This document shows positions 13,673-64,000 of a DNA stretch of 64,000 bases, piece by piece. The DNA is from an uncultured Gammaproteobacteria bacterium (GTDB lineage: Bacteria; Patescibacteriota; Microgenomatia; Levybacterales; UBA12049): contig OZ246394.1 of assembly GCA_965230895.1 (NCBI GenBank), positions 980,668-1,044,667 of the forward strand, read 5' to 3'. The notes under the pieces were generated by a model, which was given only the letters and a program-made list of their open reading frames with translations, was not told the origin of the DNA and searched no databases. Numbering within the stretch: position 1 is the first letter of the stretch; each line of letters begins with the position of its first letter. The position numbers and the translations under genes are program-made.

Positions 13673-13728
13673 TTATCACTCGTTCAAACAATATGCTAAT
13701 TTATACAATACAACGCCATTGATGTCAA
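13673..13728 (-). promoter_or_regulatory. groESL promoter (TTGACA-17-TATAAA) immediately followed by a degenerate CIRCE-like inverted repeat
   Basis: Minus strand: -35 TTGACA (13723..13728), 17-nt spacer, -10 TATAAA (13700..13705). Next comes TTATCACTC-N9-ATATGCTAA (13673..13699), compared with the CIRCE consensus TTAGCACTC-N9-GAGTGCTAA (8/9 and 6/9 matches), in the 5' UTR 22-48 nt upstream of the groES ATG. Confidence 0.4.
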
Positions 13729-33438: not shown

Positions 33439-33444
33439 CCTGCC

Positions 33445-44119: not shown

Positions 44120-45451
44120 TTAGACTTCTGAAGTAAAAAGTTTGTGATTATCCGCAGTAATTTTGATATTCTTGGCTTCACCAGCGATAATCATTCTTGC
44201 TGCCTTTCTGCACATCATGTTTACAAGTCGTTCAAGACCACGAATTCCAGGATCGTATCCTAATGGACGAATGATAATTTCCCAAACAGGTTCATCAATA
44301 ACGAGCTGTTCAGGCTTTAAACCAATAAGTTTACTTACTTTTGGAAATACATAATCACGTCCAATGTGCATTTTTTCTTCATCATTATAAGAAGGCATTT
44401 GGATAATTTCCAAACGGTCGATAACAGCAGTTGAAATAGCAGTCGTATTGTTTGCTGTAGCTACGAATAGAGAGTTTGAAAGATTAAATGGATAGTCCAC
44501 ATAATGATCTGTAAACGCATTGTTTTGTCCAGGATCCAAAAGTTCAATTAAAACACCCATGATGTCAGCACGAGCTGCTTCGGTCACACGATCTAATTCA
44601 TCCATGAGAAGCACTGGATTTTTTGTACCTGCATGCACAAGTCTTTTGATAATTTGTCCAGGTTCTGCATCTGGGAAGAAACGTGATTGTCCACGGAGCA
44701 CACGGGAATCAGCCATACCTCCAAAAGGAATACGCTCAAATTGCCTTCCAAGAGCTTCAGCGATTGACATCGCAAATGTTGTTTTACCTGTACCTGCCAA
44801 TCCTACAAAACAAAGCACTGGAGATTGTGTAGCAAAATCAGGTCCGTTATTTTGGAGATTAAGCATAATTGAGGCGATATACTCAAGCATACGATTCTTC
44901 AATATTTCCAATCCGAAGTGATCACGGTCTAAGACTTCCTTTGCTTTCTTTAAATCGAGGATATCGTCACTTTTACTAATCCAAGGCAATCCAGTTACCC
45001 AATTAATATAACGCTGAGTTGATTCATATTCCATGATATACGTGGAACTCATAAACCCAGATCCAGAACGGATTAATGCCAATCGAGCAATACGATCTTC
45101 AAGAATCTTTCGAAGTTCATCAGGTACTGGTGCTTTTTCCACTTTTTCTCCAAGCGCTCGAATCTGATCGTATGATTCACCTTTGCTATTGGTGGAGGTT
45201 GGTTGTGTGATCGTCCCACCACTCGCAGCAGCTTGAGTCACATTTGCGGTTTGTGCAGCGCTTGCTGCTTGCACTTGTACTGCTTCCACTGCTTCTTGTT
45301 GTTGCGTGATTTGACTACTTGGTAATGCAGCAATTGGCTGATCACCATTATTGGTCGAATTATCACCATTAACTCCGCCTCCAGTGGTAGGAGTTTGCGA
45401 TTGTGGTGGTGCAGCAGGAGCTGAACCTGGTGGTTGAGCAGTAGGGTCCAT
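44120..45451 (-). CDS. Lon-like AAA+ ATPase lacking the S16 peptidase domain; disordered ~90-aa N-terminus
   Basis: 443 aa. After a Pro/Gln/Ala/Thr-rich N-terminus it tracks the Lon linker-helix and AAA+ module (YINWVTGLPW; Walker A GLAGTGKTT; FERIPFGGMADSRVLRGQSRFF; Walker B LLMDELDR; sensor-2 region). The ORF stops (ITADNHKLFTSEV) where the Lon peptidase domain would begin, and rnj follows 50 nt later. Confidence 0.7.
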   Translation of the reverse strand: MDPTAQPPGSAPAAPPQSQTPTTGGGVNGDNSTNNGDQPIAALPSSQITQQQEAVEAVQVQAASAAQTANVTQAAASGGTITQPTSTNSKGESYDQIRALGEKVEKAPVPDELRKILEDRIARLALIRSGSGFMSSTYIMEYESTQRYINWVTGLPWISKSDDILDLKKAKEVLDRDHFGLEILKNRMLEYIASIMLNLQNNGPDFATQSPVLCFVGLAGTGKTTFAMSIAEALGRQFERIPFGGMADSRVLRGQSRFFPDAEPGQIIKRLVHAGTKNPVLLMDELDRVTEAARADIMGVLIELLDPGQNNAFTDHYVDYPFNLSNSLFVATANNTTAISTAVIDRLEIIQMPSYNDEEKMHIGRDYVFPKVSKLIGLKPEQLVIDEPVWEIIIRPLGYDPGIRGLERLVNMMCRKAARMIIAGEAKNIKITADNHKLFTSEV

Positions 45452-49066: not shown

Positions 49067-50071
49067 TTAAACGTCTGTAGATCCTTTGTAGACCTTAGGT
49101 GTCAGCCAATCGAGTGGCGGAGCATCATCTTGTTGATCTGCTGTTTGTGCTGCAGGCTGTGGCGCAGGTTGAGGTGCGGGCGCTTGAGCCGGAGCCGGTG
49201 CTGCTTGTGGTCTCGGTGCTGGAGCTGGCTGCGGTCGTGGAGCTGGCGCTGGTTGTTGTGTTGGTCTTGGTTGCGCTTGTGGTCTTGGTGCTGGGATCGC
49301 ATCTGCTGCTTGGTCAGCATATTGTCTTGGCGCTGGTTGTCCACTAACTCTTCGTGCTCCACGCTTCATTAAGAATGCTGAAACTTCAAATGCTAAAGAA
49401 CTTGTTCGTGGATCTTGGAAATTCTTTGTCGCAGTCATAATACCACTTAATAAATTCTGTGCTGCATCTTGTTCGATCTGGAATCCAAGTGTCAAAACAA
49501 TATCTGCAACATGTTCACTGATAGATGAAGATTGAGGATCGATAAGAACGATATCACCATAACCTTGGTTGTTTGCTTTATTATCAATGTTAATAATACT
49601 GATATTTGAGAACTTCTGTTCATCAAAAACATCACCAAGATCAGAAAGACTTGCAGCACCTACGGTAATTAAAAGATCAATCGTACCACTACCACGTGTG
49701 TATCGAACATCTTGCTCATCAAAGGAAAGACCTTGTTCTGAAGCTTTTACAATAATGTTCAAGAAATTATTTTCAAGTGTATATGAAACTTTTTCGATCT
49801 CTCCTTCTTGATATGGGAAAGATACCACTAAATCACCTGCGTCTCCGCCAAATGCGCGTTGTACTTTATTAATTCCAACTAATGAAGAAATTTCTACTAT
49901 AGGGTCTGATGGACTTGCAATACTCACTTTCTTGTTTGCATTCTTAAGAAGTAAATAAAGCGCAAGAGCTGCACCCATCTCATCGACTGAAGGTTCACGG
50001 CCAACGGCAATACCAATACTATTGCTTTTGCCAATTGCATCTTTAAGTTTTTGAATTATATTTTTATCCAT
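49067..50071 (-). CDS. DHH-family (NrnA-like) protein with degenerate catalytic motifs and Pro/Ala/Gln-rich C-terminal tail
   Basis: 334 aa. Occupies the position held by NrnA/CnpB-like DHH genes in actinobacterial nusA-infB-rbfA operons. By-eye alignment suggests DHH motif I (REPSVDEMG) and the DHH and GGGH motifs are replaced (IDNKA, RGARR). About 80-aa tail of PAPRPQ-type repeats. Confidence 0.5.
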   Translation of the reverse strand: MDKNIIQKLKDAIGKSNSIGIAVGREPSVDEMGAALALYLLLKNANKKVSIASPSDPIVEISSLVGINKVQRAFGGDAGDLVVSFPYQEGEIEKVSYTLENNFLNIIVKASEQGLSFDEQDVRYTRGSGTIDLLITVGAASLSDLGDVFDEQKFSNISIINIDNKANNQGYGDIVLIDPQSSSISEHVADIVLTLGFQIEQDAAQNLLSGIMTATKNFQDPRTSSLAFEVSAFLMKRGARRVSGQPAPRQYADQAADAIPAPRPQAQPRPTQQPAPAPRPQPAPAPRPQAAPAPAQAPAPQPAPQPAAQTADQQDDAPPLDWLTPKVYKGSTDV

Positions 50072-50099
50072 AAGTTTCGCTCAATTCTGCCTAACAGAA

Positions 50100-51572
50100 C
50101 TAACTATGGGATATTATCATATCTCCTACTTGTATGTCAAGCCCCCCTGCTAATACTACTCCTGCTTCATTTCCTTTCTCAACTTTAGAGGTTGGATTCT
50201 TACCAATACGTAGAGATTGCATTGTAGTTTCGCCTACAACATCATCTCCACGAAGCACTCTGAGTCTATCACCACGAGCAATTCTTCCATCAAGCACTGA
50301 GATACCAAATGCAAATGTCTTTTCAAAAGGGAACTTCGCAAGAATTTTTGCGGTTCCAAATATTTGTTCCATCTGTGACTGTAATTTACCTTCCAAAGCA
50401 TCACTCACTTCATCGAGCATTTCATAAATAATTTCATAATTTCGAAGAAGTACTTTCTCCGCGAAGGCAAAACTTATTAAATCTGGCTTTACCTTAGTAT
50501 TGAAGCTCAACAAGATACTTCCAGTTGATTTCGCTAACAGAACATCCGCCTCACTTACTTCACCAGTTTTCTGTTGAACAATTTTGATCCCTTCAGGAAA
50601 TGCATTTACAATAGCCTCTAAAGAACCCTGTGAATCAGCAACCAAAACAACTGAAATACCTTTATGCTCTTCTGCTCTTTGATAGACTAACTCTTTCTTC
50701 AACGATTGCTCTTCTTGTTGCGGAACTGAAGCTTTGGCGTGTTCTTTATCTGTAATAATACTTCCAACCTGAGGAACACTTGTAAATCCGAGTATTTCAA
50801 CAGCATCCCCAACAGTTACAGACTGAACTGGTTTACCCAGAGTATTTAATAATGTCCTAATCTTAAAAACTTGACCATCAATCTGGACCTCTTCACGAAC
50901 TGACATACTCCCATTCTTGATAATCGCAGTTGCTTTTGCGCCAGCACGATTGTCCAAACGTGATTCGATAACAACAGCAGACAATGGAGCATCAGCTCGG
51001 ATATCCTCTGCGTACGTAGGAGATCGATGCATATCAAACATAAGCAGGATTAAATCTAGGAGCTCCTTAATGTTATGACCTGTTTTTGCAGATACAGCAA
51101 TAACAGGAGTTTCTCCTCCATACCCTTCAAGCTGAATTCCTTCACCTAAAATTTCTTGTTTTACTTTTTCAGCATTAGCGGTTGGTAAATCAGATTTCGT
51201 TAAGACGACGATAAAATTAGTTTTTGCATCCTTCAGAACTTGGATACTTTCCTTTGTTTGAGGCTTGATACCATCACCTGCTGAGACAATGAGCAAACAA
51301 AGATCTGCAGCTTGCGCTCCACGACCTCGCATTTTATTAAATGCTTCGTGACCAGGAGTATCTATAAATGTAATCCATCGGTTTTCTCCTTCGTGATTGA
51401 TTTCAACTTCAGAAGCACCAATCTTCTGGGTAATACCACCTTTTTCTCGGTCAGCGATAGAACTTTTACGGATAGCATCAAGAAGCGTCGTTTTCCCATG
51501 ATCGACATGCCCAAGTACCGCAACTACAGGCGGAAATTGTTTTTGTGATGATGGTGTATCTTTTTTAGACAT
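50100..51572 (-). CDS. infB: Translation initiation factor IF-2, minimal form
   Basis: 490 aa; the G domain starts at residue ~15 (VVAVLGHVDHGKTTLLDAIR), followed by domain II and the C-terminal domains; none of the long N-terminal region of typical bacterial IF2 is present. Confidence 0.9.
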   Translation of the reverse strand: MSKKDTPSSQKQFPPVVAVLGHVDHGKTTLLDAIRKSSIADREKGGITQKIGASEVEINHEGENRWITFIDTPGHEAFNKMRGRGAQAADLCLLIVSAGDGIKPQTKESIQVLKDAKTNFIVVLTKSDLPTANAEKVKQEILGEGIQLEGYGGETPVIAVSAKTGHNIKELLDLILLMFDMHRSPTYAEDIRADAPLSAVVIESRLDNRAGAKATAIIKNGSMSVREEVQIDGQVFKIRTLLNTLGKPVQSVTVGDAVEILGFTSVPQVGSIITDKEHAKASVPQQEEQSLKKELVYQRAEEHKGISVVLVADSQGSLEAIVNAFPEGIKIVQQKTGEVSEADVLLAKSTGSILLSFNTKVKPDLISFAFAEKVLLRNYEIIYEMLDEVSDALEGKLQSQMEQIFGTAKILAKFPFEKTFAFGISVLDGRIARGDRLRVLRGDDVVGETTMQSLRIGKNPTSKVEKGNEAGVVLAGGLDIQVGDMIISHS

Positions 51573-51671: not shown

Positions 51672-52682
51672 TTACTTCTCTTCTGAATCTGATTTCTCAG
51701 CTTCAGAATCCTCAGTTGCTTCTACCGCAACTCCATCTTTTCCTTCAATTTCAATTCGGTATTTTGTCAATTTGTATGCAAGTCGTACATTTTGGCCATC
51801 TTTTCCAATTGCCAAAGATAATTCATCTTGTGGGACAAATACATGTGCAACTTTTTCAGCTTCATCAATTTCTACACGAACATTCTTTGCTGGAGAGAGC
51901 GCTTGAGCAATATATGTTGCAGTATCCTCAGACCATTGGATGATATCAATCTTTTCAAGTCCACCCAATTCTTGGATGATAGCTTGTACTCTTACACCCT
52001 TTTGTCCCACGCATGAACCGACTGGATCGATACCTGGTTGTGTTGAGAAAACAGCAATCTTTGCTCTATTTCCAGGCTCACGAACAACTGCTTTAATTTC
52101 GACACTACCTTGTGCAACTTCTGGAACTTCTCGCTTAAATAATCCTTCAAGTAAACCATTATGCGCTCGGGAAACAACAATTTCTTCACCTTTTGAACCT
52201 TGGCGAATTTCAGAAAGGAAAAATACCAATCTTTGATTCAAATGATATTTTTCATTTGAAATTTGCTCTGAAACAGGCATAATGGCCTCAGCTTTCCCTA
52301 TATCAACAATGATATTTGGACCTGCAAATCGAAGTACCATACCATTTACAATTTGTCCAATTTTAACTCGGTAATCAGTAAATATTGCTTCCTTTTCTTT
52401 CTCTCTTATTTTCTGGAGAATAACTTGCTTTGCAGTTTGCGCAGCAATACGTCCGAATCCTGGAGGTGTAACATCCTTATCATTTTGGAAAATTTTTGCT
52501 TCACCTGAATTAGGATCCAATACTGCTCGGTATTCATCAACCTCAACACCAGGGTGATCTTTCCGATATGCTGCCAAGATAGCGTTCTGGACGGTATCAA
52601 GCACAACATCGACGTCAACCCCTCGTTCTGAGGCGACTTGATTTAAAGCTAATGCGAATTCACTACGTTGTATAGCTGGCAT
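51672..52682 (-). CDS. nusA: Transcription termination/antitermination factor NusA (no AR1/AR2 domains)
   Basis: N-terminal, S1, KH1 and KH2 domains. The ORF-track start at 52733 is a TTG; homology favours the ATG at 52682 (MPAIQRSEFALALNQVASERGVD...). Confidence 0.85.
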   Translation of the reverse strand: MPAIQRSEFALALNQVASERGVDVDVVLDTVQNAILAAYRKDHPGVEVDEYRAVLDPNSGEAKIFQNDKDVTPPGFGRIAAQTAKQVILQKIREKEKEAIFTDYRVKIGQIVNGMVLRFAGPNIIVDIGKAEAIMPVSEQISNEKYHLNQRLVFFLSEIRQGSKGEEIVVSRAHNGLLEGLFKREVPEVAQGSVEIKAVVREPGNRAKIAVFSTQPGIDPVGSCVGQKGVRVQAIIQELGGLEKIDIIQWSEDTATYIAQALSPAKNVRVEIDEAEKVAHVFVPQDELSLAIGKDGQNVRLAYKLTKYRIEIEGKDGVAVEATEDSEAEKSDSEEK

Positions 52683-52735
52683 AGAGCTTAGTATACCAGA
52701 TACAAGCGTAACCTTCAACCACCGCGTGGGCAAGA

Positions 52736-55700
52736 TTATGGAGCAACTTCGTTGGAGGTAATCGACTGTATACGAACTAACTCTGGTAGATTAACGACAA
52801 AATCGAGCCGCTGAACAATTTGAAGGGAAGGATTATCAAGATTATTACCGCATAGATCTCTATTATTCTGAAGCTTTCCACCTGATTGTGCTGCATTAAC
52901 GATGAGTACACCTGCAATGTTTAAGCGTAGATCTGCACAGGTGTTTGTACTTTGCATAATAAATGATTTATCTGTACTAAAGATTCCTGCAAGGTTTGTA
53001 GTACTGGAGCTTGGGGCAGACCCAACGGTTGGAGGGACGATAATATTTCCGGAGACGGAGAAAACGACTGTGGAACCGACAGGAGTAACAATATTCCCTT
53101 TAATAGTCAGGTTGCCATTAATAATAAACACATAATGTTGATTCGCCGGGAAAGTAAATCCATTCAAGGAGACGTCACCTGTTGCAGTATACGTTCCTTG
53201 TGGTAGCGTAACTGGCAACGTGCAATTCGAAAGAGTACAAATCGTTGATAGATTTGTTGGAGTCGTATCAGAGGCTTTTACTTTCGCACTGAGATAATCA
53301 TACGATGAGAAAATACCTCCGCTATTTGATGGCACATAAACTTCAGGATATGAATAACCTCCAACAACTTGATTTGTGCTCGATGCTTGACCTACTCCAA
53401 ATTCAGCCTGAGAATCACCAGTAAAGATTACGCCAGGTGTACTACAAGTTGGATTTGAGGTCATCATTGTTTTACCTTCTGGGACTGGATTATCAATACC
53501 ATTATCCATACGTAACTCTCCGCATTGTACCTGCATCCACGGATTGAAGTTTGTGAGATAGTAATTTAAGTTCGAAATATCACCCGGAAGCGTTGTTACA
53601 GTACCGGTCCTACTTTCTTCATTTCCAAATGTATTCATATTATTTAATCCTGAAGCATATTCAGCTTCGATCCAATCTGCAGAACGAGCAACTCTCGCCA
53701 TACGTACTTCGTCAATTTTTCCATCAAAGCACCATGCATAATCAGCCGAGCACGCACCATTGATATCAGCTTGTCCAATTGATGAAGCCTGTGTACCATA
53801 GTCACGTAAAGTCCCGGTATAAGTATTCCCATTGCGTAAAGCTCCATCTACATAGAGGTTCTCCCGCTTTGTTGCCGTATCAACGGTCTCAGCAACGTGG
53901 CGCCAGGTTCCAGAAGTATAAGGAGAAGCGCTTGCACCATAAGCAGTACCTGAAGTGTTATAAACAGTTGAAAACCAGTTACTTCCACTCGCAAAACGAA
54001 GTCCAGTATGCTGCCCTCTTTTTCCTACAACGAAATAATCGTTAAGTCCTGAGCTATTTGGATTTGTATCGGGATTTGCCCAAGCTGTATACGTGAAATT
54101 AGCTTCTGTCAAATCCTGCAGGCTTGAGGAATTAGGAATTGTTATTTTATCGTTTCCGGATGTTCCTCCGTCAAAGTTTTGAGCATTTCCAATTCTTCCA
54201 GCATTTGTACTTAAAGTGAAACCGCTTGCTGTTCCATTATTTGCATTCGAGGTTGAATCAATAACAGTTGTTCCAGACGTTTCAGCCATATGGTAAACGG
54301 CGGCATACCCATTGCTCCAGACATTAGCCTTATTTTGTCCATCAGCTGCATTAGAATTATTGTAGTACATCCAAATATAGTCAGCGTTTGAATTTGCATC
54401 AATTTGAGGAACTTTAACCCAAAGATCCGACGTTCCGTTTTCATCCCATTTTTCAATTTCATGTGCCAATAACGTCACTCCATCAGCGTCTACAAAGCGA
54501 ACATCCTGACCTAGGTTCTGAGTTTTTGCGTAATCCACATTTGTGCTATTCAACGAAACTCTCAAGGGGAAATTGACTAAGCTTTCTGCTGATGCTGTGT
54601 TATTGATAGTTATCTTTTTTCGGGATAACCATTTCGGATCCCACCAGTCTATTGTAGGTTCTTCAGCTGAGATACCATCACTCGTGTAAACTTCAATTCC
54701 AGAAAGATTAAAATCCCCTCCTGTTTGGAAAAAGGACAGACTTCCATCTGAAACTGTTACATGATATGGTCCAAGCTTTTTCCAGGTTCCTGCGTTACCA
54801 CTTTGCAAATTAGACTCCTTTGCTACCCCTTCAAAACCAATATTATATGTGGTCGATGTAGTATCTTCCCAAGTATAAACATATACTGAATACTCTCCAT
54901 TGGTTATGGGAATTTCTGCGTTCAGTTGGATATTGCCGCCTCTCCATATTGAAGATCGTAGCATTTGTGCCTTATTTGCACTAACTGAAGGACTTAACGT
55001 AATTCCTTGGTTCTGGAAATTTGTACCATTTGTTGTAATTCCTGCTGCAGATTGAGCTTGAAATGTTGTACCATCTACGTCTAATTGTGGTCCGTTAAAG
55101 TTCACTGCTTTTATAAGAGTATTCGCTGGCAGCGTTGAACTTGGTGTTCCTTCATACAATTGCACATCGTCGATCCAAACTGTTCCAGTTGCAGTTGCAA
55201 CTTGGAATCCTACAAGAGCATTATCTGTTGTTTCTGTTGGCTGGAATGTATATGTATATTGCTGCCAACTACTCGTAAGCGATGCAGTCTTGCGAGTGTA
55301 AAGAGTATACGGATCATTCCCGTTTTGGACAATCGCATCCATAGTCCTGTTTCCCGAGGCCTTTGCCCAAAAGCTTAATGTATAGGTTTTGCCTGCAGAA
55401 ACTGGGACGCCGTAGGTTGCAAGTTCTAAATCTTGAAGATTGCTCGTCGTCGTAGTAACGACTATTTGCGCAGAATATGCTCCATGTGTGCTTGTTGCAT
55501 TTGTAGCTGTAAATGTACCATTTGCGCTGCCTTTTTTTTGTAAGAACCAATCCGTGGTCCCCAATTCATAACTCCAATTCTGGACAAGATTCTGCCGACT
55601 GCCTGGAGTAGGAGTCACCGTAGCAGCATCGATCAATTCCATATCATCAACATAGAAACTGTTCCCAGAGACAGCTGAATCCTGGACGATATAATAATCA

Positions 55701-56185
55701 ATACTATCAACCGCTGAAGTAACTGTTACCGTAGCAGTAATTTTTTGCCAATCAGTAGTCAGATTGACGATAGGACCAGAAGTCATCGTTTTGTTACTAC
55801 CTGTCCATTGCCTCAAGATGATATGAATCGGTTTCCCAACAGCAGTTGTTGATCGAACCCAAGCTGTTGCGGTATATGTTTTCCCTACCGGAGGATTGGT
55901 AATTGGATCTTGGTTATCATCTATTGTGTAGTAGTCTCCAACTGATCTTGTTACCAGACAAGATGCAGACCCACTATGTGCGACATTTGTCACCCGTGTT
56001 AACGTTCCCTGATACGAATTCCATGAAGAAGTATTTGTTTCGCACCCGGGATTTGGGATCAGATTGGCATAAGCAATATTATGAATCGAACTTAATGAAA
56101 AAATTACCCCAGAAATAATAAGCATAAAAGCTAGTACTGTGAAGATGATTGAATGATGTTTTTTTGAAAGAAATATGCTTTTCAT
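52736..56185 (-). CDS. Large secreted surface protein: two CBM_4_9-like carbohydrate-binding modules, DUF2341 and LamG-like domains
   Basis: Start taken at the ATG at 56185 (MKSIFLSKKHHSIIFTVLAFMLI..., a signal anchor) rather than the TTG at 56236. Two repeats with NPGCE/NWSYE...W...VDDxxL CBM-like patterns, a DUF2341-like region (WWDPKWLSRKKITINN) and a concanavalin/LamG-like region. Ends 2-53 nt upstream of nusA. Confidence 0.6.
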   Translation of the reverse strand: MKSIFLSKKHHSIIFTVLAFMLIISGVIFSLSSIHNIAYANLIPNPGCETNTSSWNSYQGTLTRVTNVAHSGSASCLVTRSVGDYYTIDDNQDPITNPPVGKTYTATAWVRSTTAVGKPIHIILRQWTGSNKTMTSGPIVNLTTDWQKITATVTVTSAVDSIDYYIVQDSAVSGNSFYVDDMELIDAATVTPTPGSRQNLVQNWSYELGTTDWFLQKKGSANGTFTATNATSTHGAYSAQIVVTTTTSNLQDLELATYGVPVSAGKTYTLSFWAKASGNRTMDAIVQNGNDPYTLYTRKTASLTSSWQQYTYTFQPTETTDNALVGFQVATATGTVWIDDVQLYEGTPSSTLPANTLIKAVNFNGPQLDVDGTTFQAQSAAGITTNGTNFQNQGITLSPSVSANKAQMLRSSIWRGGNIQLNAEIPITNGEYSVYVYTWEDTTSTTYNIGFEGVAKESNLQSGNAGTWKKLGPYHVTVSDGSLSFFQTGGDFNLSGIEVYTSDGISAEEPTIDWWDPKWLSRKKITINNTASAESLVNFPLRVSLNSTNVDYAKTQNLGQDVRFVDADGVTLLAHEIEKWDENGTSDLWVKVPQIDANSNADYIWMYYNNSNAADGQNKANVWSNGYAAVYHMAETSGTTVIDSTSNANNGTASGFTLSTNAGRIGNAQNFDGGTSGNDKITIPNSSSLQDLTEANFTYTAWANPDTNPNSSGLNDYFVVGKRGQHTGLRFASGSNWFSTVYNTSGTAYGASASPYTSGTWRHVAETVDTATKRENLYVDGALRNGNTYTGTLRDYGTQASSIGQADINGACSADYAWCFDGKIDEVRMARVARSADWIEAEYASGLNNMNTFGNEESRTGTVTTLPGDISNLNYYLTNFNPWMQVQCGELRMDNGIDNPVPEGKTMMTSNPTCSTPGVIFTGDSQAEFGVGQASSTNQVVGGYSYPEVYVPSNSGGIFSSYDYLSAKVKASDTTPTNLSTICTLSNCTLPVTLPQGTYTATGDVSLNGFTFPANQHYVFIINGNLTIKGNIVTPVGSTVVFSVSGNIIVPPTVGSAPSSSTTNLAGIFSTDKSFIMQSTNTCADLRLNIAGVLIVNAAQSGGKLQNNRDLCGNNLDNPSLQIVQRLDFVVNLPELVRIQSITSNEVAP

Positions 56186-56186
56186 A

Positions 56187-59132
56187 TTATTCACACTTCG
56201 CTCCAGTTGCGCCATTTGTATTACATTCTGGGCCAAGTGTCACTTGAAATGATGGAGGAGGTCCATTGAGCGGATATGTCATCCTGTATCCAGTCGTCAG
56301 AGGAGAAACAAGGGAAACAGTATACGTTCCAGGAGGCAAAGCTCCACTAGAATACGATCCGTTTGAAGTTTCAACAGTTTTCCTCGTCGGTCCTGAGAAG
56401 AAAATAAGCATAGGATCAGTAATAAGTGTGTCTGGTGGCGCGAGATTAAGATCCTTATCAAAGTCTTTAACAATATTTCCTGAGATAGTAAATCCTGTCG
56501 CATTCCCAAAATCGATATTATCGTAGGAATTTCCAGATTCGACACTTAAATTATATGCTTTTGTATCAGTTGTCTGATACCAACCCGCCTGCACAACTTC
56601 TGTGAATGTAAAATCCTTCGTACATAATCCTGTAAATGAGAACTGGCCTGCTGAATTCGTCTTGGCGGTGATAGGAACGTCCAAATCTTCTGCTGAAGCC
56701 TGAACTGTCCAGTTATACAAGGGAAGGTCGCCTCCATCGTATACTTTATTTGTATTCTTGTCATTGAAGATCATACCGTTAACGACACCGGTTCCAATAT
56801 CTTCTGCAATACTTTGATAAATTGATTCAAGTGTTGAAGTAGATGGAGAATTGTAGAATCTTCCACCGTTCGTATCAGCAAGCTGTTGCATAAAGATAGG
56901 ATCAAACGAGCCGGATCCTTGTCCAATACCAATAACTTGATAGATAATGTTTTGTGCATTTACACCGTTAATTGTGGCGGTCATAGCAGCATTTTCAGCA
57001 GCATCAATAGAGACATTTCCCCCATTTGAACCAATTATTTGATTTGTAGCACCATCTGTCATAACAATGACAACTTTTTGAGCATTTCTTGTAGATCTAC
57101 TAAGCTCTCCATTCCCTAAAACAATTCCGCACTCTACACATGTACCGCCTCCATTATCTGGGACTGCACTAATAGCGTTTTTAATAGCGGATGTATTCGT
57201 AGTAAGTGGTTGAGAAACACGGGTATTCACATCATTTGGATAATTATTACTCCCTGAGAAAACAGTCAATCCATATTGTGCATTTTTGACATGAGAAGAG
57301 ACAATATCGATGAAGCTACTTGCTGCCCGCTTTGCGGCAAGCATTTTTGTCATACCTGTTGTTGGATCTGTTTCTTGCATACTTCCAGAATCATCAAATA
57401 CAAGCATAATATCGACACCATTTGCACTACATGATCCTCCGACCTTTGTAGTCGTACTTTCGACAATACCAAAGTTAACCGTCTTATCTGTCGAAAGCGG
57501 AAAATTAAGCGAATTTGCAGTAGTACTTCGATAACCGGTTGGCGTATCAACCCGAATTGTATAGTCACCGCTCGCCTGATCAGCAAAGAGATAGCCTCCA
57601 CTAACATCTGTTGTTTTTGTAACAGGTGTCGTCTTCGTCAATGTAACTGTTGCTCCCTGATAAAGCGGTTCACTCGGATCTAATAACCCATTCTTATTTA
57701 AATCTATAAATACTTTTCCGGTAACGTTATAAAGTGTTACCATTCCGAATTCAACTGTTTTCGCAGGCGTTCCTCCAGCAGTACCTGCAGTAGAAGGAGG
57801 AGCAAAGGTAATTGTCTGAGTGTTTGTTGTTGTACTCTTTTTCTTGGCAGGAAGTGTATATGTGATTGTATATGTTCCTGCAAAAAGATTTGGGAAAGAG
57901 AAATTTCCGGAGTTATCTGTTACAGCAGAACCTGTAGCAGTACCCGAGAGTACAATTGTTACCCCAGGTTCCACAGAGTCGCCATTACCTCGTTTTCCAT
58001 CTTCATTTTTATCTTCAAAAATCGCTCCTGAGATAGTAAAAAGAGGTACAATTCCGAAATTGAGTGTTCTATTTGGCCCTACTGTAAAATTCGCTTCCGA
58101 TGGCGTTGATGCCTGATAATTAGCGGGCAAAGGGAATTCCGCGTTATAGGTACCAGCAAAAAGCTGTGCTGTATAGCTCCCATCTGAGGCACTTCGCGCA
58201 GTTACGGTAGTAGGACCAGTAAATGTAATTGTGCCTCCAGTGTAATTACCATCACCATTATCGTCGACACTGTTTCTGTTATTGTCTAAAAATATCATTC
58301 CGGAAACTGTGTAATATTGTGCAACTCCAAAGCTTACCGACTGATTCGAGTTTAGCGTCACAGATCTTGGATTTGTATTTGTAGCCTTATATCCCCCTGG
58401 AACAGCGATTGTCACAGTATAGGTTCCAGCAAACAATGCCGGGAAAGTGAAATCTCCATTTTCATCGGTTGTTGTACTTGTTGATGTTGGACCTGACACA
58501 GAAACAGTTATGCCACTATTTCCTGATTCACCAGCATCCTTTGTTGTATCAATATCTGTATCTGTAAATACATTTCCTGAAAGAGTATGGACAAAACCAA
58601 TACCAAAATTAACAGTTTTATTGGATGTTAGAGAAACAGATTGTGGATTTGTCGAAGTATTTTTATAACCATTTGGGACAGTAATCGTAACTGTATAATC
58701 ACCCCTCGGAAGAGTCACAGAATATCCTCCCGTTAAACTTGTCGTTGTTGTTGTAGACGAGGCTCCAGTAATTGTAACAGTAACGCCACTCACCCCAGCT
58801 TCAAGTGTATCTTTATTTCCATTTGCATTTGCATCAACATAAATAGTTCCTGAAAGAACTGCCGTTGGAATAGGTGTAGGAGTCGGAGTGGATGTCGGAG
58901 GAGCAGGAGTTGGAGTGCTTGATGGTGTCGGAGATGCAACTACCTGTGCAATCAAATCACCAAGTACTCCTTGCTGCTTTTTTTCTTGCTGAGGCATAAT
59001 TAACTGCTCAATTTGTTGCAGTTTTTCTGGGTAAAAGATACTTGCAGCACTTGTAATAATTCCTACAAAAACAATCGCGACAAAAACTGTATTGATAATT
59101 TTAAAAACATTTAATCGAGGTTTTTTTAACAT
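56187..59132 (-). CDS. Large surface adhesin-like protein: N-terminal TM anchor, Pro/Thr linker, multiple SdrD-B/CnaB-type Ig-like repeats and a von Willebrand factor A domain
   Basis: 981 aa. Repeated about 100-aa units of the form GxxxxDxNxNGxxD...GYxxTxxN...NFG; vWA with a MIDAS-like DDSGSM...TDG; N-terminal TM helix FVAIVFVGIITSAASIF. Confidence 0.65.
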   Translation of the reverse strand: MLKKPRLNVFKIINTVFVAIVFVGIITSAASIFYPEKLQQIEQLIMPQQEKKQQGVLGDLIAQVVASPTPSSTPTPAPPTSTPTPTPIPTAVLSGTIYVDANANGNKDTLEAGVSGVTVTITGASSTTTTTSLTGGYSVTLPRGDYTVTITVPNGYKNTSTNPQSVSLTSNKTVNFGIGFVHTLSGNVFTDTDIDTTKDAGESGNSGITVSVSGPTSTSTTTDENGDFTFPALFAGTYTVTIAVPGGYKATNTNPRSVTLNSNQSVSFGVAQYYTVSGMIFLDNNRNSVDDNGDGNYTGGTITFTGPTTVTARSASDGSYTAQLFAGTYNAEFPLPANYQASTPSEANFTVGPNRTLNFGIVPLFTISGAIFEDKNEDGKRGNGDSVEPGVTIVLSGTATGSAVTDNSGNFSFPNLFAGTYTITYTLPAKKKSTTTNTQTITFAPPSTAGTAGGTPAKTVEFGMVTLYNVTGKVFIDLNKNGLLDPSEPLYQGATVTLTKTTPVTKTTDVSGGYLFADQASGDYTIRVDTPTGYRSTTANSLNFPLSTDKTVNFGIVESTTTKVGGSCSANGVDIMLVFDDSGSMQETDPTTGMTKMLAAKRAASSFIDIVSSHVKNAQYGLTVFSGSNNYPNDVNTRVSQPLTTNTSAIKNAISAVPDNGGGTCVECGIVLGNGELSRSTRNAQKVVIVMTDGATNQIIGSNGGNVSIDAAENAAMTATINGVNAQNIIYQVIGIGQGSGSFDPIFMQQLADTNGGRFYNSPSTSTLESIYQSIAEDIGTGVVNGMIFNDKNTNKVYDGGDLPLYNWTVQASAEDLDVPITAKTNSAGQFSFTGLCTKDFTFTEVVQAGWYQTTDTKAYNLSVESGNSYDNIDFGNATGFTISGNIVKDFDKDLNLAPPDTLITDPMLIFFSGPTRKTVETSNGSYSSGALPPGTYTVSLVSPLTTGYRMTYPLNGPPPSFQVTLGPECNTNGATGAKCE

Positions 59133-59226
59133 GCGTAATAAGAAGAGACTTCTCTCCCTATAACCATTATAGGAAGTTACTCCGCCTCAGGCAATGCTAA
59201 GATTTTAAGAAAGGATAGGAGAGAAA

Positions 59227-61635
59227 TCAGGAGACATCAGCATGAAGTGCGCCTGTACCATCAATAGTAAAGTTAACTTTTTTACCACGATCTATTTCCT
59301 TCGTCAAACGTTTCTGCGCAATAATATCTTCAACTGTATCTTGTAAATATCGTCGTAAAGGACGTGCCCCAAAGTCTTTATCAAAGCCTTCTTGCGTAAT
59401 CTTTTCAATGACGGCGTCGTCAAAAGTTAATGTAATATCCTGTGCCGCCAATGACTTTGTTAATTGAGCTAATAATAACTTTGTTACAGCAACGACTTGC
59501 TCTGGACCAAGCGGATTAAAGGTCACGACATCATCAAAACGATTGAGTAGCTCTGGTTTGAAAATACCTTTTGTTTGTAACTGCTCCAGCAACCTTTGCT
59601 CAAATTTCTTATCAATCGCAGTACCTTTCTCAACTTCTTCACGAATAAATTCTGAACCGGCATTTGACGTAGCGATAATAATTGCATTGCGGAATGATAC
59701 TGTTGTTCCTTTATTATCAGTCAATCGACCATCATCGAGAACTTGCAAGAAAAGATTATGGATTGCAGGATTTGCTTTTTCAAATTCATCGAGCAAAATA
59801 AGTGATGCTGGATTATCATGAATTTTATCAGTCAGTTGGCCTCGGTCTTCTCCCTCGCCAGGTGCAGCTCCCAATAATCGCTTTAATCCATTCTCGTCAG
59901 TATATTCACTCATATCCAAACGAATCATGTGCTGCTCTCCTCCAAAGTAAAATTGTGCTAAAGCTTTCGCAGTCTCTGTCTTACCGACACCCGTCGGACC
60001 TAAAAAGAGAAAAGAAATAGGACGTTCACTGGTCGTCATACCAGAGCGGATACGTCGCATTGCTTCACTAATCGCTTTCACCGCGGTATCCTGGGCAATA
60101 ACTCGCTCATGCAGCTTGTCTTCGAGATGTAAGAGCAGATTAATTTCTTGTCCTGTTGGGAGTGCAATTGAAACATGGCTTGTTGCTTCGACTTTTTTAA
60201 CAACATCTTGTTCGAGCACCATCTTACGATGTGACTTTTCAAATGATGGACGTTCTTTTTCCTGAGAAACAGAATTAGCCACAGTTTCAAGCAAAGAGAC
60301 TGCACTTCCTGGTAAAACTTGATCCTGAAAAAAACGATTAGCAAGTTCAACAGCACTCAAAACTGCACGATAACTGATAATTACTCCATAGGTATTTTCT
60401 ATTTTAGCTGCTTCTCCTAATACCATCTGGATCGCATTAGCAGGCTCAACCGGTTTTAGTTCAACAACGGCAAAGGCCTCTTTTAAAGGATTTTTTTCCA
60501 TATACGTTTTGTAACTTCCAGTTGTCATTGTGGCGACCATGGGAATATTTCCACTTTTTAGGTATGGCAAAAGCGCACCTGAAAGATCCAGTCCATATGA
60601 TGATGCACCTAATATATTTTGAAAATCAGGGATATAGACAAATACATCATTTGCATGAGAGATCTCGGCAATAATATTTTGTAGTCGTAATTCAAGGTCA
60701 TTACGATTTCCAGCACCAGCTGTTAGCGCTCCGACCAGTAATTGGAAAATTCGCTTATGATTAAGATAGCCGCCTAGATTTCCAGTGAAACTATGATACG
60801 CAAGCGCTCGGACTAAGTTCTCTTTTCCTGATCCGATATCGCCGACGATAAGCACATTATTATTTTCAATTTTCGTAAGCCCTTCCAAAACCATTTTAAA
60901 TTCTGACTCTCGCCCACCAATATGTGGTTCTGTTCTTAAAGCGTAGTTTGTAAATAATGCAGTATATTTTTTTGTTTCAGGAGTCCAACCTGAGGTAAGC
61001 GCTTCACCAATTCCTCCACCTGCAAAATTAATTCGTACCGGTTTTGGATTTTCTTCATCTGGTAAGTCGAGACGAACCCAATAGAGGATATTGTATAAGT
61101 CTGTTATCTTGAGCTGTTTGGCAAATAATATCTTTGTATCCTTTTCAATTAAGAAGAGATATGCCACAAGAACATCCAAGGTGGTTACATACTTTGCTTT
61201 AAATGTCTGAGCTGTTTGAAATGCACTTTGTGCAAGTAATTTTTTATCAACTTCCTGCACTACAAGATCTTTACTGGTGATATTAGCTTTTTGCAGGACA
61301 AGTTTCACTTGAGGGTAAGTCATAAGGCGCTTAATTAATGACGTTGCGTTAGGTTCTGTTATAAATCCATACAATGCAGCCATAGTAAATGATTCATACA
61401 TATTCTCTTCTTTATTTTTGGAGACTTCAATTTTGGGAACTGCACGGCTTATCTTGTAATGAAAGAATACCTCAAACATTACAAACAGATTAAAAAGAAA
61501 AACACTAAAGTTGGCTGGAATATCATTTGATACTTGATACAGTATTAAAGACAATAGCATCGCACAAGCGACAAGTCTGATGCTTCGCACGAGTGCGGTT
61601 CTATAAAATCGGTATAGTCGGACAGATAATTCCAT
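59227..61635 (-). CDS. Membrane-anchored Hsp100/Clp-family AAA+ protein with degenerate first nucleotide-binding domain
   Basis: 802 aa. Two N-terminal hydrophobic helices. D1 Walker A GDIGSGKEN (consensus GxPGVGKT) and Walker B VFVYIPDF (DE lost). D2 is intact (GPTGVGKTE, ILLDEFEKA, GARPLRR). Confidence 0.7.
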   Translation of the reverse strand: MELSVRLYRFYRTALVRSIRLVACAMLLSLILYQVSNDIPANFSVFLFNLFVMFEVFFHYKISRAVPKIEVSKNKEENMYESFTMAALYGFITEPNATSLIKRLMTYPQVKLVLQKANITSKDLVVQEVDKKLLAQSAFQTAQTFKAKYVTTLDVLVAYLFLIEKDTKILFAKQLKITDLYNILYWVRLDLPDEENPKPVRINFAGGGIGEALTSGWTPETKKYTALFTNYALRTEPHIGGRESEFKMVLEGLTKIENNNVLIVGDIGSGKENLVRALAYHSFTGNLGGYLNHKRIFQLLVGALTAGAGNRNDLELRLQNIIAEISHANDVFVYIPDFQNILGASSYGLDLSGALLPYLKSGNIPMVATMTTGSYKTYMEKNPLKEAFAVVELKPVEPANAIQMVLGEAAKIENTYGVIISYRAVLSAVELANRFFQDQVLPGSAVSLLETVANSVSQEKERPSFEKSHRKMVLEQDVVKKVEATSHVSIALPTGQEINLLLHLEDKLHERVIAQDTAVKAISEAMRRIRSGMTTSERPISFLFLGPTGVGKTETAKALAQFYFGGEQHMIRLDMSEYTDENGLKRLLGAAPGEGEDRGQLTDKIHDNPASLILLDEFEKANPAIHNLFLQVLDDGRLTDNKGTTVSFRNAIIIATSNAGSEFIREEVEKGTAIDKKFEQRLLEQLQTKGIFKPELLNRFDDVVTFNPLGPEQVVAVTKLLLAQLTKSLAAQDITLTFDDAVIEKITQEGFDKDFGARPLRRYLQDTVEDIIAQKRLTKEIDRGKKVNFTIDGTGALHADVS

Positions 61636-61642
61636 AATCTAA

Positions 61643-62020
61643 TTACAAAAATAATAACCAAATCGTTGCAAACGGCAAGAATATATAACCCAGAAACACA
61701 GTAATTTCAAAGAGAAGTAATAGGAAAAGCATTAATACATCAGCAAGAATAAGCCATGTTTTGACAAAGATACCCATAGCCCTTGAAAAACCGACTAATC
61801 CTTGTCTGTATTCATTTTTTATAGGTTGAAAGTACGTCTTTATAAAAAGTGGTAATGAAAATAGATGAAAAAATGAGCTATTCAGGGAAGCAAAGAACTG
61901 GAGTAAGGAAAGTGGACTTTCATAAAACCAAAATTTTAAAAATAGAATCGGTACATTTAAATAGCTTCTATGCCAAACAAAATGAGGTAAGTGAACCTGG
62001 ACAGGTTTTGTATTTTTCAT
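61643..62020 (-). CDS. Small polytopic membrane protein (125 aa)
   Basis: Highly hydrophobic, Phe/Leu-rich; ends 7 nt before the start of the membrane-anchored Clp-like gene. Confidence 0.35.
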   Translation of the reverse strand: MKNTKPVQVHLPHFVWHRSYLNVPILFLKFWFYESPLSLLQFFASLNSSFFHLFSLPLFIKTYFQPIKNEYRQGLVGFSRAMGIFVKTWLILADVLMLFLLLLFEITVFLGYIFLPFATIWLLFL

Positions 62021-62129
62021 ATTCCCAACACAAAGAATCCGAACGAATTCGGTCCTTATCTTAAGTATATGCAGTCGAACTGATAATTACAATGCAAGGA
62101 AACACGAGTGGGACAGAGAAGTTAAGAAA

Positions 62130-64000
62130 TTATTCTATTTCTTCGTGGCGGGATTGTGGCGCGACATAATTTACTGGCCGGAAGTTTGATGGAATTCCAG
62201 AGTAATTGTATGCTGACTGAGATGCCATTGCTGCACCATTGGACGCTACACCGTTTGCAGGTGGAGGCGTACTATCTACAGCACCATTTGGAAGACTTGT
62301 TGGAGCTGGAGTCTGGAAAACAGGTCCGGTATTCTCCGCTGGTGCATTTGTTGGCGCTTGCGGTGTAGTTGGTGCTGCTGCAGGATTATTAACAGCAGCT
62401 CCACCTGGTGCAGGAGCAACTGGTTCAGGCGCTGTTGGAGTATTTGCCGCTTGTCCATCAGTTGCTTGTGTCGGATTCTGATTAGGAGCCTGTGGAGCGC
62501 CACCTGGAACATTTTGTGGTTGATTAGCGTCTTGTCCCTCTGAAGGTTTTGACTCAGCGCTTTCAGCCGGCTTCACATCACTTGAATCAGATGATTGTCC
62601 GCCTTGTTCTGCTGAACCTTGATCATCAGGAGCAATATTCTTAACTCCTGCTGCTTCAAGTACCATAATTGCAATTTCATCCTTTTGTTGAGCTGCAGCA
62701 ACCATATCAGCAACCATCTTTTCTAATTCTTCATATTTTATAGTATCTTTGACACTAAGTACTGCTGCTGCTAATGCGTTACCTTTTTGACTTGCTTCAT
62801 TAAGCTTCGTTTGAACAGCAGTATACTTCTCTTTGTCTGCTGGTAATTCAGCTGTAACTGGATTATTAATTAACAGTAACGTTTTCTTAAAGTTACGCAG
62901 TGGTTGATGAGCCAGCTCTTCTTCAATTATCTTTAATATCTCAGTTGCTAATGGATCACCAGATTCTTTTGCAGCTTGCAACTCTTTTTGAATTCCAGCA
63001 ATGTCATCATCAGATGTGATATCAGTAATCGCAAGAATCTTTGTAGCTAAAGGATTACCTTCAGTCTTTGCTTTTTGCATCTTCTCGTAGACAACATTAA
63101 ATTGATCTTTAACTTCAGGGTCAGCGAGATACAATGGATTAATCAATTGTTTTAATACATTCTTAAACTTGGTAACAGGCTCTTCTTCATGTGCTGCCTC
63201 TGCTTCTTCGACAAGCTCACTATTTACTGCCGCGAGAATATCCTCAGCAAGGCTATCTTCATTTTCCTTTGCAACCTTCAATTCTGCCATCAAATCTTCA
63301 ATAGCTGCATCGGTTGTTGTATCGTTCACAGCAAGAATCTTTGCTGCCAAAGCATTTCCACGCTGATTTTCCATAGTCAGTTTCTCATGAAGTTCCATGA
63401 AACGAACCTTCTTATTACTATCTTTAATATTATCTGGATGAATGATCTCAAGAAGGATTTGCTTAAGCTTCAATGAGGCTTGGATCTGCTGTGCCATACT
63501 ATTTGCAAGTTCAATAATTTCGAAAGCTAGATTGTCACCTTTAGCTTTTGCTTCTTCAATTTGCTTACGTAAGGTTTGGATTTGCTTCAAATCTGTTGAA
63601 ACTGTTACTTCAAGGATGCTGCTTGCCATTGCATTCTTTTCAGTACGAGCTTGCGTTAATTTGTCGTGGAGGACAATAAAGCGTGATTTATCTGTAGTAC
63701 TTGTTATATTGTCTGGATTTGCCAAGTTAATCAAAACTGTTCGGAACTGCTCATCTGTAAGTGGAGCGACTGTTGCACCCGCACCACCCTTATTGAAGAC
63801 AAACTCATTGGTATTATCACTGTAATCGATCACAATTGTATCTCCAGCAACAAACTTCTTTGAAATAATTGCTAACGCAATGGGATTTTCAATAGCAGTT
63901 TGAACGAGTCTTCGGAGTGGTCGAGCACCATAGACTGGGTCATAACCATCTTTTGCCAATTGATTAACAGCTTTTTCAGTGATTTGAAGGTTAAAGCCTT
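62130..64000 (-). CDS. ClpB/ClpC-like AAA+ chaperone (5' end outside the window) with a ~540-aa C-terminal extension of four ~95-aa repeats plus a Pro/Ala/Gln/Asn-rich tail
   Basis: The frame is open to the window edge. The region near 63900-64000 encodes the D2 small domain (GYDPVYGARPLRRLVQTAIENP). Then come four degenerate repeats sharing F..LH.KL...T.GN.LA..IL.V.D.T.D..I..L..EL..AK..GD.LA.EIL, then a low-complexity tail. Confidence 0.7.
   Translation of the reverse strand, partial: GFNLQITEKAVNQLAKDGYDPVYGARPLRRLVQTAIENPIALAIISKKFVAGDTIVIDYSDNTNEFVFNKGGAGATVAPLTDEQFRTVLINLANPDNITSTTDKSRFIVLHDKLTQARTEKNAMASSILEVTVSTDLKQIQTLRKQIEEAKAKGDNLAFEIIELANSMAQQIQASLKLKQILLEIIHPDNIKDSNKKVRFMELHEKLTMENQRGNALAAKILAVNDTTTDAAIEDLMAELKVAKENEDSLAEDILAAVNSELVEEAEAAHEEEPVTKFKNVLKQLINPLYLADPEVKDQFNVVYEKMQKAKTEGNPLATKILAITDITSDDDIAGIQKELQAAKESGDPLATEILKIIEEELAHQPLRNFKKTLLLINNPVTAELPADKEKYTAVQTKLNEASQKGNALAAAVLSVKDTIKYEELEKMVADMVAAAQQKDEIAIMVLEAAGVKNIAPDDQGSAEQGGQSSDSSDVKPAESAESKPSEGQDANQPQNVPGGAPQAPNQNPTQATDGQAANTPTAPEPVAPAPGGAAVNNPAAAPTTPQAPTNAPAENTGPVFQTPAPTSLPNGAVDSTPPPANGVASNGAAMASQSAYNYSGIPSNFRPVNYVAPQSRHEEIE

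Follow-up and report, generated by a model that had tools for sequence, protein, structure and literature searches.

We analysed a cluster of collinear genes at the end of a 64,000-nt stretch of genomic DNA (contig OZ246394.1; the whole stretch is referred to here as the window), with a focus on clpTM, a gene for a membrane-anchored ATPase of the Clp/Hsp100 type. A first-pass annotation made from the DNA letters had noted that two Clp-like ATPases and a small membrane protein are followed by two large surface proteins and nusA-infB, and had speculated that they form a dedicated system for extracting, unfolding or quality-controlling the surface proteins. ORF (open reading frame) listing and translation confirmed the minus-strand features at the places that the annotation had given, and Pfam and NCBIfam searches reproduced its domain calls for all of them.

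Read in the direction of transcription, the minus-strand cluster begins with the 3′ part of a Clp gene that we call ClpExt (62130 to beyond 64000), which comprises the end of D2 (the D2-small domain), four ~90-aa helical repeats and a P/A/Q-rich low-complexity tail and which, as annotated, is cut by the window end. It is followed by smallTM (61643–62020), encoding a helical membrane protein of 125 aa; by clpTM (59227–61635), encoding an 802-aa Hsp100 paralogue with an N-terminal transmembrane (TM) hairpin; by the gene of a vWA/SdrD_B surface protein (56187–59132; 981 aa; Pfam and NCBIfam); and by that of a CBM_4_9/DUF2341/Laminin_G_3 protein (hereafter LamG protein; 52736–56185, longest ORF to 56236; 1149 aa from M18). 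Downstream lie nusA (51672–52682, longest ORF to 52733; Pfam) and infB (50100–51572), the latter encoding an IF2 of 490 aa. The intergenic gaps measure 109, 7, 94, ~1 and 2 nt (first reported as 2–110 nt), but the last one is most likely ~53 nt, since NusA most likely starts at M18 of its longest ORF (52682), as in nearly all homologues. The LamG protein likewise most probably starts at M18 (56185), a choice that agrees with homologues and keeps its membrane anchor.

About 70 related loci were compared, and a profile of the clpTM N-terminus recovered 66 genome loci. The upstream context was read from a relative, L002 (90% identical); an exact-protein look-up for the window returned only a 6.4-kb Logan contig. 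Credible taxon labels of clpTM homologues are Candidatus Levyibacteriota/Levybacteria (Patescibacteria/candidate phyla radiation, CPR). Many contigs with this locus (L002, L008, L009, L054 and others) are titled ‘uncultured Gammaproteobacteria bacterium’, ‘Woesearchaeota archaeon’ or ‘Acidiferrales’, evidently as placeholders or through mis-binning.

The ATPase clpTM and its small membrane partner

Pfam assigned AAA_lid_9, AAA_2 and ClpB_D2-small domains to clpTM, whose two tandem AAA+ modules (D1 and D2) and ClpB/ClpC-like fold place it among the class-I Hsp100/Clp proteins. Against the PDB, phmmer matched it to ClpC and ClpB with E ~1e-104, and Foldseek comparison of its structural model with solved structures ranked ClpC as nearest (E = 1.8e-49), followed by ClpB and ClpC1. 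The best NCBIfam match was the ClpB equivalog TIGR03346; nevertheless, at 435.8 bits clpTM remained below the cut-off of 1232.1 for that family.

The annotation had called D1 dead. Alignment with Bacillus subtilis ClpC, together with a census of motifs in 156 members of the family, indicated an even more degenerate state, extending to the pore loops of both modules. The D1 Walker A motif reads GDIG[AS]GKE, with Thr replaced by Glu, and Walker B reads YIP[DE]F, in which P[DE] stands in place of DE, both in the alignment and in the census; the Arg-finger motif is KEAF, as opposed to ERRF in ClpC. In the pore loop of D1, AGAGNR, GNR takes the place of the KYR of ClpC (Tyr to Asn); that of D2 reads PGEG--EDRG as compared to PGYVGYDEGG, involving a two-residue deletion and the exchange of Tyr for Glu or Gln. 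The pore-loop tyrosines are thus lost from D1 and D2 family-wide. D2 is complete in its catalytic motifs, comprising Walker A (GPTGVGKTE), Walker B (LLDEFEKA), sensor 1, an NR Arg finger and sensor 2 (GARPLRR). At the site of the VGF ClpP-docking loop of ClpC, clpTM carries a 6-aa deletion, and no [IVL]G[FL] tripeptide was found in the aligned segment across the 156 clpTM members or in ClpExt. The D1 lid is separated from AAA_2 by 141 aa, a spacing that leaves no room for an M-domain. With pore-loop tyrosines, M-domain and ClpP loop all absent, clpTM is unlikely to work as a classical threading unfoldase.

We considered whether clpTM could be a decaying, pseudogene-like paralogue. This was ruled out by a mean column identity of 72% over 43 full-length members together with invariant D2 motifs. 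The degenerate D1 residues (GSGKE, YIPDF and KEAF) are themselves invariant in 43–156 homologues, the 43 full-length members included, which argues that D1 degeneracy is a selected state. Every full-length family member measures 778–832 aa. Searching 1.84 billion representatives with the N-terminal 240 residues yielded a small family of 91 clusters (50% identity), which go by generic database names such as ‘ClpA/ClpC’ or ‘AAA family ATPase’.

The confident AlphaFold2 (AF2) model of clpTM (predicted local distance difference test score, pLDDT, 80.9) starts with an amphipathic helix and a helical hairpin (residues 14–36 and 42–62), followed by a Clp_N-like helical domain, a GWTPET linker—invariant in sequence and modelled with low confidence—and, last, D1 and D2. 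On either side, the hairpin is bordered by stretches rich in Arg and Lys. Hydropathy and the positive-inside rule predict an N-in/C-in hairpin and hence cytoplasmic ATPase domains.

The partner protein, smallTM, matched no Pfam or NCBIfam family, and its homologues form 79 clusters that are all annotated as ‘hypothetical’. Family members have a core of ~108 aa and a typical length of 108–110 aa, and their alignment displays a nearly invariant KNEYRQGLVGFS loop; the AF2 model (pLDDT 78.6) consists of three helices. In every one of those among the 66 loci whose upstream sequence is readable, smallTM lies directly upstream of clpTM, and the two ORFs often overlap by 4 nt, suggesting an often translationally coupled pair. 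From this adjacency, which is observed, we infer that smallTM and clpTM form a two-protein membrane complex.

One locus (L059:9605–12223) encodes smallTM and clpTM as a single 872-aa ORF, a possible Rosetta-stone fusion in which the first clpTM hairpin helix is deleted and the smallTM C-terminus continues straight into the second helix. The junction falls into a T6 homopolymer, in which a single additional T would bring back the usual stop codon, so a sequencing error is possible.

Full-text literature searches brought up no account of an Hsp100 with a TM anchor, whether in CPR or in other bacteria. The annotation had regarded an anchored Hsp100-type unfoldase next to vWA/lectin-like surface proteins as an undescribed arrangement. 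clpTM and its small membrane partner thus represent a conserved and apparently undescribed Clp/Hsp100 variant.

ClpExt and the upstream proteostasis block

Within the window, Pfam recognised a ClpB_D2-small domain in the ClpExt fragment and gave no family assignment for its tail. A full-length orthologue of 1431 aa is present in the relative (L002:5211–9506), with a tail 82% identical to that of the window copy. It consists of a Q/P/A-rich N-terminus, Clp_N, D1, D2, four ~90-aa repeats and a low-complexity tail; Clp_N was matched by Pfam in two further orthologues (L011 and L063) and is putative, judged from sequence, in the L002 protein. Both D1 and D2 of the orthologue have canonical Walker motifs, D2 has the pore loop GYVGY, and the D1 pore loop is SHRGEFEER (Tyr to His). 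ClpB was the best PDB match of ClpExt. The protein, described in the annotation as a ClpB-like ATPase with a repeat extension, lacks the ClpB M-domain: residues 408–516 of E. coli ClpB have no aligned counterpart in the L002 orthologue. The tail repeat had neither a Pfam nor a PDB match.

In relatives, the genes are arranged in the order hrcA-grpE-dnaK-dnaJ, a pilin-like protein, a polytopic repeat-tail protein, ClpExt, an insertion site that we term slot A (between ClpExt and smallTM), and smallTM-clpTM. The four chaperone genes were found by all-against-all clustering of the loci and confirmed by Pfam. ClpExt is located 0.1–6 kb from clpTM in roughly half of the loci, and about 20 loci have no ClpExt within 10 kb upstream of clpTM. 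The window thus holds the tail of a proteostasis block that is conserved across Levybacteria.

Between dnaJ and ClpExt (L002:1053–5110), the relative encodes a 100-aa T4SS_pilin-like protein (PF18895, E = 5.7e-5) and a protein of 1248 aa that has a signal peptide as well as ~7 TM helices and whose C-terminal tail shares the ~90-aa helical repeat with ClpExt. A TrbL/VirB6 identity of this polytopic protein was considered and set aside as a lead only: one of six copies (L041) gave a match, at E = 2.6e-5, just below the Pfam cut-off.

Control of the module by HrcA is unsupported, as none of the three gaps that contain promoter-like elements (below) holds a CIRCE (controlling inverted repeat of chaperone expression) operator at up to four mismatches. 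The sole such element in the window is found upstream of groES (13673–13699); it is a degenerate, CIRCE-like sequence, TTAGCATAT-N9-GAGTGATAA, with four mismatches, just downstream of a TTGACA/TATAAA promoter-like pair. Related loci carry a CIRCE variant, TTAGCAGT-N11-ACTGCTAA, several kb upstream of smallTM.

Gene content and promoter-like elements around the surface-protein cassette

The two proteins encoded between clpTM and nusA are predicted to be exported and held by an N-terminal signal-anchor helix. In the vWA protein, the anchor is followed by a P/T linker, six SdrD_B/CnaB-type Ig-like repeats, the vWA domain and further Ig-like domains. VWA and VWA_2 both scored above their cut-offs, and the metal-ion-dependent adhesion site (MIDAS) motif, DDSGS at residue 580, is an intact DxSxS. 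No LPXT[GAS] sorting motif was found in the protein, and its score against the SdrD family, the SdrD_B repeats notwithstanding, was 81 bits as compared to a cut-off of 2500. The LamG protein comprises an N-terminal anchor, two CBM_4_9 domains, DUF2341, Laminin_G_3 and a C-terminal region of ~300 aa without a domain.

Synteny was counted over the 45 loci in which both clpTM and nusA are visible, the interval between these genes being termed slot B. In 22 of them, among which are loci of every deep-branching clade in a neighbour-joining tree, clpTM directly adjoins nusA, with gaps of 3–195 nt. The remaining 23 carry slot B inserts of 0.4–6.4 kb with mixed content. Among them are vWA/SdrD_B proteins, a beta-helix/Big_7 protein, an M48-S26 peptidase fusion, a TPR protein that is polytopic, anchored proteins without assignment, and ORFs for cytoplasmic proteins, some of these GIY-YIG-like or TIR-like as judged by their N-terminal sequence only. 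The peptidase fusion (L053:12842–15229) is a 795-aa polytopic protein in which an M48 (HtpX-like) peptidase is joined to an S26 signal peptidase. In slot A we found, among others, secreted proteases of the S8 and M4 families, a UvrD-like helicase and SdrD_B proteins.

Orthologues of the vWA protein occupy the same slot in six lineages only (L002, L003, L031, L068, L069 and L070), and the LamG protein is found there in only four to five. The check that the annotation had put forward, recurrence of such Clp genes beside surface-protein genes in other genomes, thus went for the most part against a dedicated system: outside these lineages the slot is empty or taken up by other genes. Beyond these loci, a first metagenome scan with the C-terminal half of the vWA protein gave no matches and an alignment-based scan returned only distant vWA/SdrD_B relatives (≤35% identity), none of which, in 80 metagenomic loci, had clpTM, smallTM or nusA as a neighbour. 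The surface-protein cassette is optional and absent from most relatives and, on this comparative evidence, is not an obligatory part of one machine.

The first-pass annotation had described the Clp genes as transcribed directly into the surface-protein genes. This is not established: the coding strand of each of three gaps contains one conserved −35/−10 pair. In the 109-nt gap upstream of smallTM, TTGTAA-17-TATACT (62064–62092, minus strand) forms an island that is conserved with respect to L002 amid diverged spacer, with a small conserved hairpin (62039–62052) downstream of it. TTGCCT-17-TATAAT (59166–59194, minus strand) occupies the 94-nt spacer that follows clpTM and precedes the vWA gene; L002 conserves both hexamers and the leader downstream of them but not the upstream half of this spacer. 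Upstream of nusA, TTGAAG-17-TATACT with a TG extension (TGnTATACT; 52690–52718, minus strand) is embedded in spacer 95% identical to L002, and its −10 hexamer ends 7 nt before the ATG at 52682. The nusA transcript may consequently be leaderless or nearly so. Separate transcription from three promoters is the better-supported reading of these elements as compared to one transcript.

nusA heads the operon nusA-infB-DHH(NrnA-like)-rpsO-pnp, whose gene order, as assigned by Pfam, is kept in more than 40 loci. Two features of this operon (49067–51572, minus strand), both conserved across Levybacterial loci, are the short IF2 (490 aa, without N-terminal extension) and a DHH-family (NrnA-like) gene after infB, where rbfA/truB are usual. 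In many Levybacterial loci, pnp is followed by a gene (44120–45451, minus strand, in the window) for a Lon-like protein of 443 aa, in which AAA and Lon_lid domains are present and no protease domain was detectable. The remaining window genes are housekeeping genes, encoding SecA, SerRS, MurJ, GroEL, LepA, RpoB/C, AlaRS, FtsK, RNase J and PNPase. A cohesin and PKD protein gene (13918–15129, plus strand) is wedged between the groES-groEL and lepA regions, and a 786-aa ORF without Pfam match (31078–34176, plus strand), directly followed by a sortase gene, probably encodes a sortase-substrate surface protein. As these genes are interspersed as well, surface genes between core operons are normal in the source genome. 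Rfam and tRNA scans of the whole window gave no matches.

Explanations for the locus and comparison with known systems

Taken together, we consider it probable that the region is a mosaic of three collinear units rather than one dedicated machine. The first, ClpExt with smallTM-clpTM, would be the tail of the conserved Levybacterial proteostasis block. Herein, ClpExt may act as a ClpB-derived disaggregase-type ATPase without the DnaK-coupling M-domain and with a helical-repeat tail, and smallTM and clpTM may build a membrane-embedded complex on the cytoplasmic face, to which clpTM would be tethered by its hairpin. The D1 ring of clpTM would serve as a conserved structural or binding pseudo-ATPase, with the D2 ring as the only motor. 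Given the replaced pore-loop tyrosines, the absent ClpP loop and D2 as the only motor, clpTM would most likely be an ATP-driven holder or remodeller, not a processive threader or protease partner; membrane-proximal proteostasis is the most economical guess for its role. The second unit would be the vWA-LamG cassette with an apparent promoter of its own, gained once in the crown group of the clade, retained in slot B and repeatedly lost; one old acquisition followed by repeated loss is the simplest reading of its patchiness. The nusA-infB-rpsO-pnp operon, again with an apparent promoter of its own, would be the third. Genes in compact CPR genomes can be tightly collinear without forming one system, and it is comparative synteny that separates the core from the optional cassette.

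Several observations weigh against this mosaic. Promoter and terminator scan totals equalled those of shuffled sequence, leaving position in the gap and conservation with respect to L002 as the only usable promoter signal, and the consensus applied is that of sigma-70, which may not be that of CPR bacteria. While promoter-like pairs occur in three gaps, the terminators that the annotation had considered as further separators failed to appear: the scan revealed no convincing intrinsic terminator between the three units, and read-through from clpTM into the cassette and nusA is therefore possible. The clpTM tree is a simple neighbour-joining gene tree. Furthermore, only five homologues with the architecture of the LamG protein were found among 5.8 billion proteins; the gene of each is preceded by that of a vWA orthologue and followed by nusA, and it comes after clpTM in the four contigs that reach that far. 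Close vWA orthologues, too, all reside in the clpTM-nusA slot, and the cassette is patchy in the crown group, where it occurs in a group formed by the window, L002, L069 and L003, in L068 and in L031. Occurrence in this slot only, combined with patchy distribution, also fits selection for linkage. Finally, an N-terminal hydrophobic anchor was predicted for 34 of the 56 ORFs in slots A and B, as compared to 74 of 264 other unmatched ORFs of the same loci. This ~twofold enrichment comes from related loci by a statistic that ignores shared ancestry, and accessory genes of CPR genomes are generally rich in exported proteins; we regard it as suggestive only.

These same observations—slot-only occurrence of the LamG cassette and its patchiness on the clpTM tree, and the enrichment of anchored proteins, S8 and M4 proteases and the HtpX-like M48-signal peptidase fusion included—are what remains of the initial proposal that ClpExt, smallTM and clpTM are a dedicated unfoldase that extracts, unfolds or quality-controls the adjacent surface proteins or, in a wider version, any exported slot proteins. 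Tight collinear spacing also speaks for it, as do the upstream T4SS-pilin-like protein and the weakly VirB6/TrbL-like protein that shares its tail repeat with ClpExt. We nevertheless judge it unlikely, because about half of the loci, all deep clades among them, have no gene in slot B and still maintain a highly conserved smallTM-clpTM, and because the slots also accommodate cytoplasmic UvrD-like, GIY-YIG-like and TIR-like ORFs. The enrichment statistic, too, lacks phylogenetic independence. Moreover, the cassette has its own conserved promoter-like element, clpTM has neither pore-loop aromatics nor a ClpP loop, and the surface proteins bear ordinary N-terminal signal anchors in a window that encodes SecA. 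A ‘Clp plus adhesin system’ is thus mostly unsupported; we would see in it a juxtaposition restricted to this lineage, for which some unproven hints of linkage are left. A related idea is that smallTM-clpTM is a membrane-embedded, non-threading Hsp100 machine that works with ClpExt and the pilin-like and VirB6-like proteins in the chaperone-coupled biogenesis or export of envelope proteins in Levybacteria, with the slot-encoded exported proteins, those of the vWA-LamG cassette among them, as clients; we give it only a slim chance.

Somewhat less doubtful, albeit still improbable, is that clpTM acts as a membrane tether or regulatory subunit through which the ClpExt motor, with its competent pore, would be recruited to the membrane, conceivably in mixed or stacked assemblies; Pex1/Pex6 on Pex15/Pex26, or Torsin with LAP1, would then be its analogues. 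The two ATPases share the M-domain-less spacing, their genes are 0.1–6 kb apart in roughly half of the loci, the D2 GYVGY loop lost in clpTM is kept in ClpExt, and the residue-by-residue conservation of the degenerate D1 suggests binding over catalysis. On the other hand, a passive tether would have no use for the complete D2 catalytic set of clpTM, the ~20 loci devoid of ClpExt within 10 kb upstream are hard to accommodate, and neither fusion nor co-variation evidence links the two proteins. Least credible to us is a smallTM-clpTM that functionally belongs to the nusA-infB operon, sitting in the usual rimP position and linking transcription/translation to the membrane. The clpTM-nusA linkage is indeed the most conserved in the data set, above that to ClpExt, and the direct spacing is short in the 22 loci; but the Clp ATPase bears no resemblance to RimP, a conserved promoter-like element of its own precedes nusA in the window, up to 6 kb of inserted DNA is tolerated between clpTM and nusA, and shared descent by itself would lead one to expect such adjacency of housekeeping genes in a single order-level clade. 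We therefore retain the mosaic of three units; the 22 of 45 loci with an empty slot B speak against a dedicated surface-protein system, and slot-only occurrence of LamG and the enrichment of anchored proteins stand in its favour.

Hsp100 proteins are textbook soluble threading motors. The clpTM family departs from these rules by its own membrane hairpin, constant small-TM partner, pseudo-ATPase D1 and lack of aromatic pore loops, yet it is strongly conserved. If functional, the family points to a non-threading use of a Clp D2 motor at the membrane, and it extends what little is known about proteostasis in the ultra-small bacteria of the CPR. With ClpB/Hsp104, both paralogues share the two-tier AAA+ architecture, a Clp_N-like N-domain, AAA_lid_9, AAA_2 and ClpB_D2-small, the absence of a ClpP loop and, in relatives, a dnaK/dnaJ/grpE neighbourhood. 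Neither has the M-domain coiled coil, and clpTM differs further in its dead D1, the absence of both pore-loop tyrosines and the N-terminal TM hairpin. ClpC/ClpA resemble clpTM in overall length and D1-D2 spacing, ClpC being its best structural and marginally best PDB match, but clpTM is set apart by the deleted ClpP-docking loop, the missing pore-loop tyrosines, the dead D1 and the membrane anchor.

The annotation had also invoked the MoxR-vWA and CbbQ-CbbO pairs, in which, as here, an AAA+ gene adjoins a vWA-domain gene. The analogy fails on ATPase type, predicted compartment and conservation: the ATPase is Clp-type (its bpMoxR score of 21.5 bits does not reach the cut-off of 27), export is predicted for the vWA domain and its Ig repeats but a cytoplasmic location for the ATPase domains, and the pairing is absent in most relatives. 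With Sdr/CnaB-type MSCRAMMs (microbial surface components recognizing adhesive matrix molecules), the vWA protein has in common SdrD_B/CnaB-like Ig repeats and a vWA domain with MIDAS; it differs in the missing LPXTG signal, the N-terminal position of its anchor and a score of 81 rather than 2500 bits.

Other systems may be closer in function. Torsin is a Clp-D2-related membrane AAA+ protein without aromatic pore loops that has a small membrane-protein partner, LAP1/LULL1; it forms a single ring, is lumenal and has no Arg finger of its own. For smallTM-clpTM, Torsin-LAP1 would be a functional analogy only, not a sign of family membership, as clpTM is two-ring, predicted to be cytoplasmic and intact in its D2 Arg finger, and smallTM is not homologous to LAP1. 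Pex1/Pex6, with Pex15/Pex26, is a double-ring AAA+ complex with an inactive D1, and HSP101 of the Plasmodium translocon of exported proteins (PTEX) is an Hsp100 coupled to membrane proteins. Unlike clpTM, both keep aromatic pore loops, thread their substrates and have no TM hairpin of their own. Pex1/Pex6 with Pex15/Pex26 may nonetheless serve as an analogy for the combination of a dead D1 with a membrane anchor, be it in the holder or remodeller that we favour or in a clpTM that tethers ClpExt.

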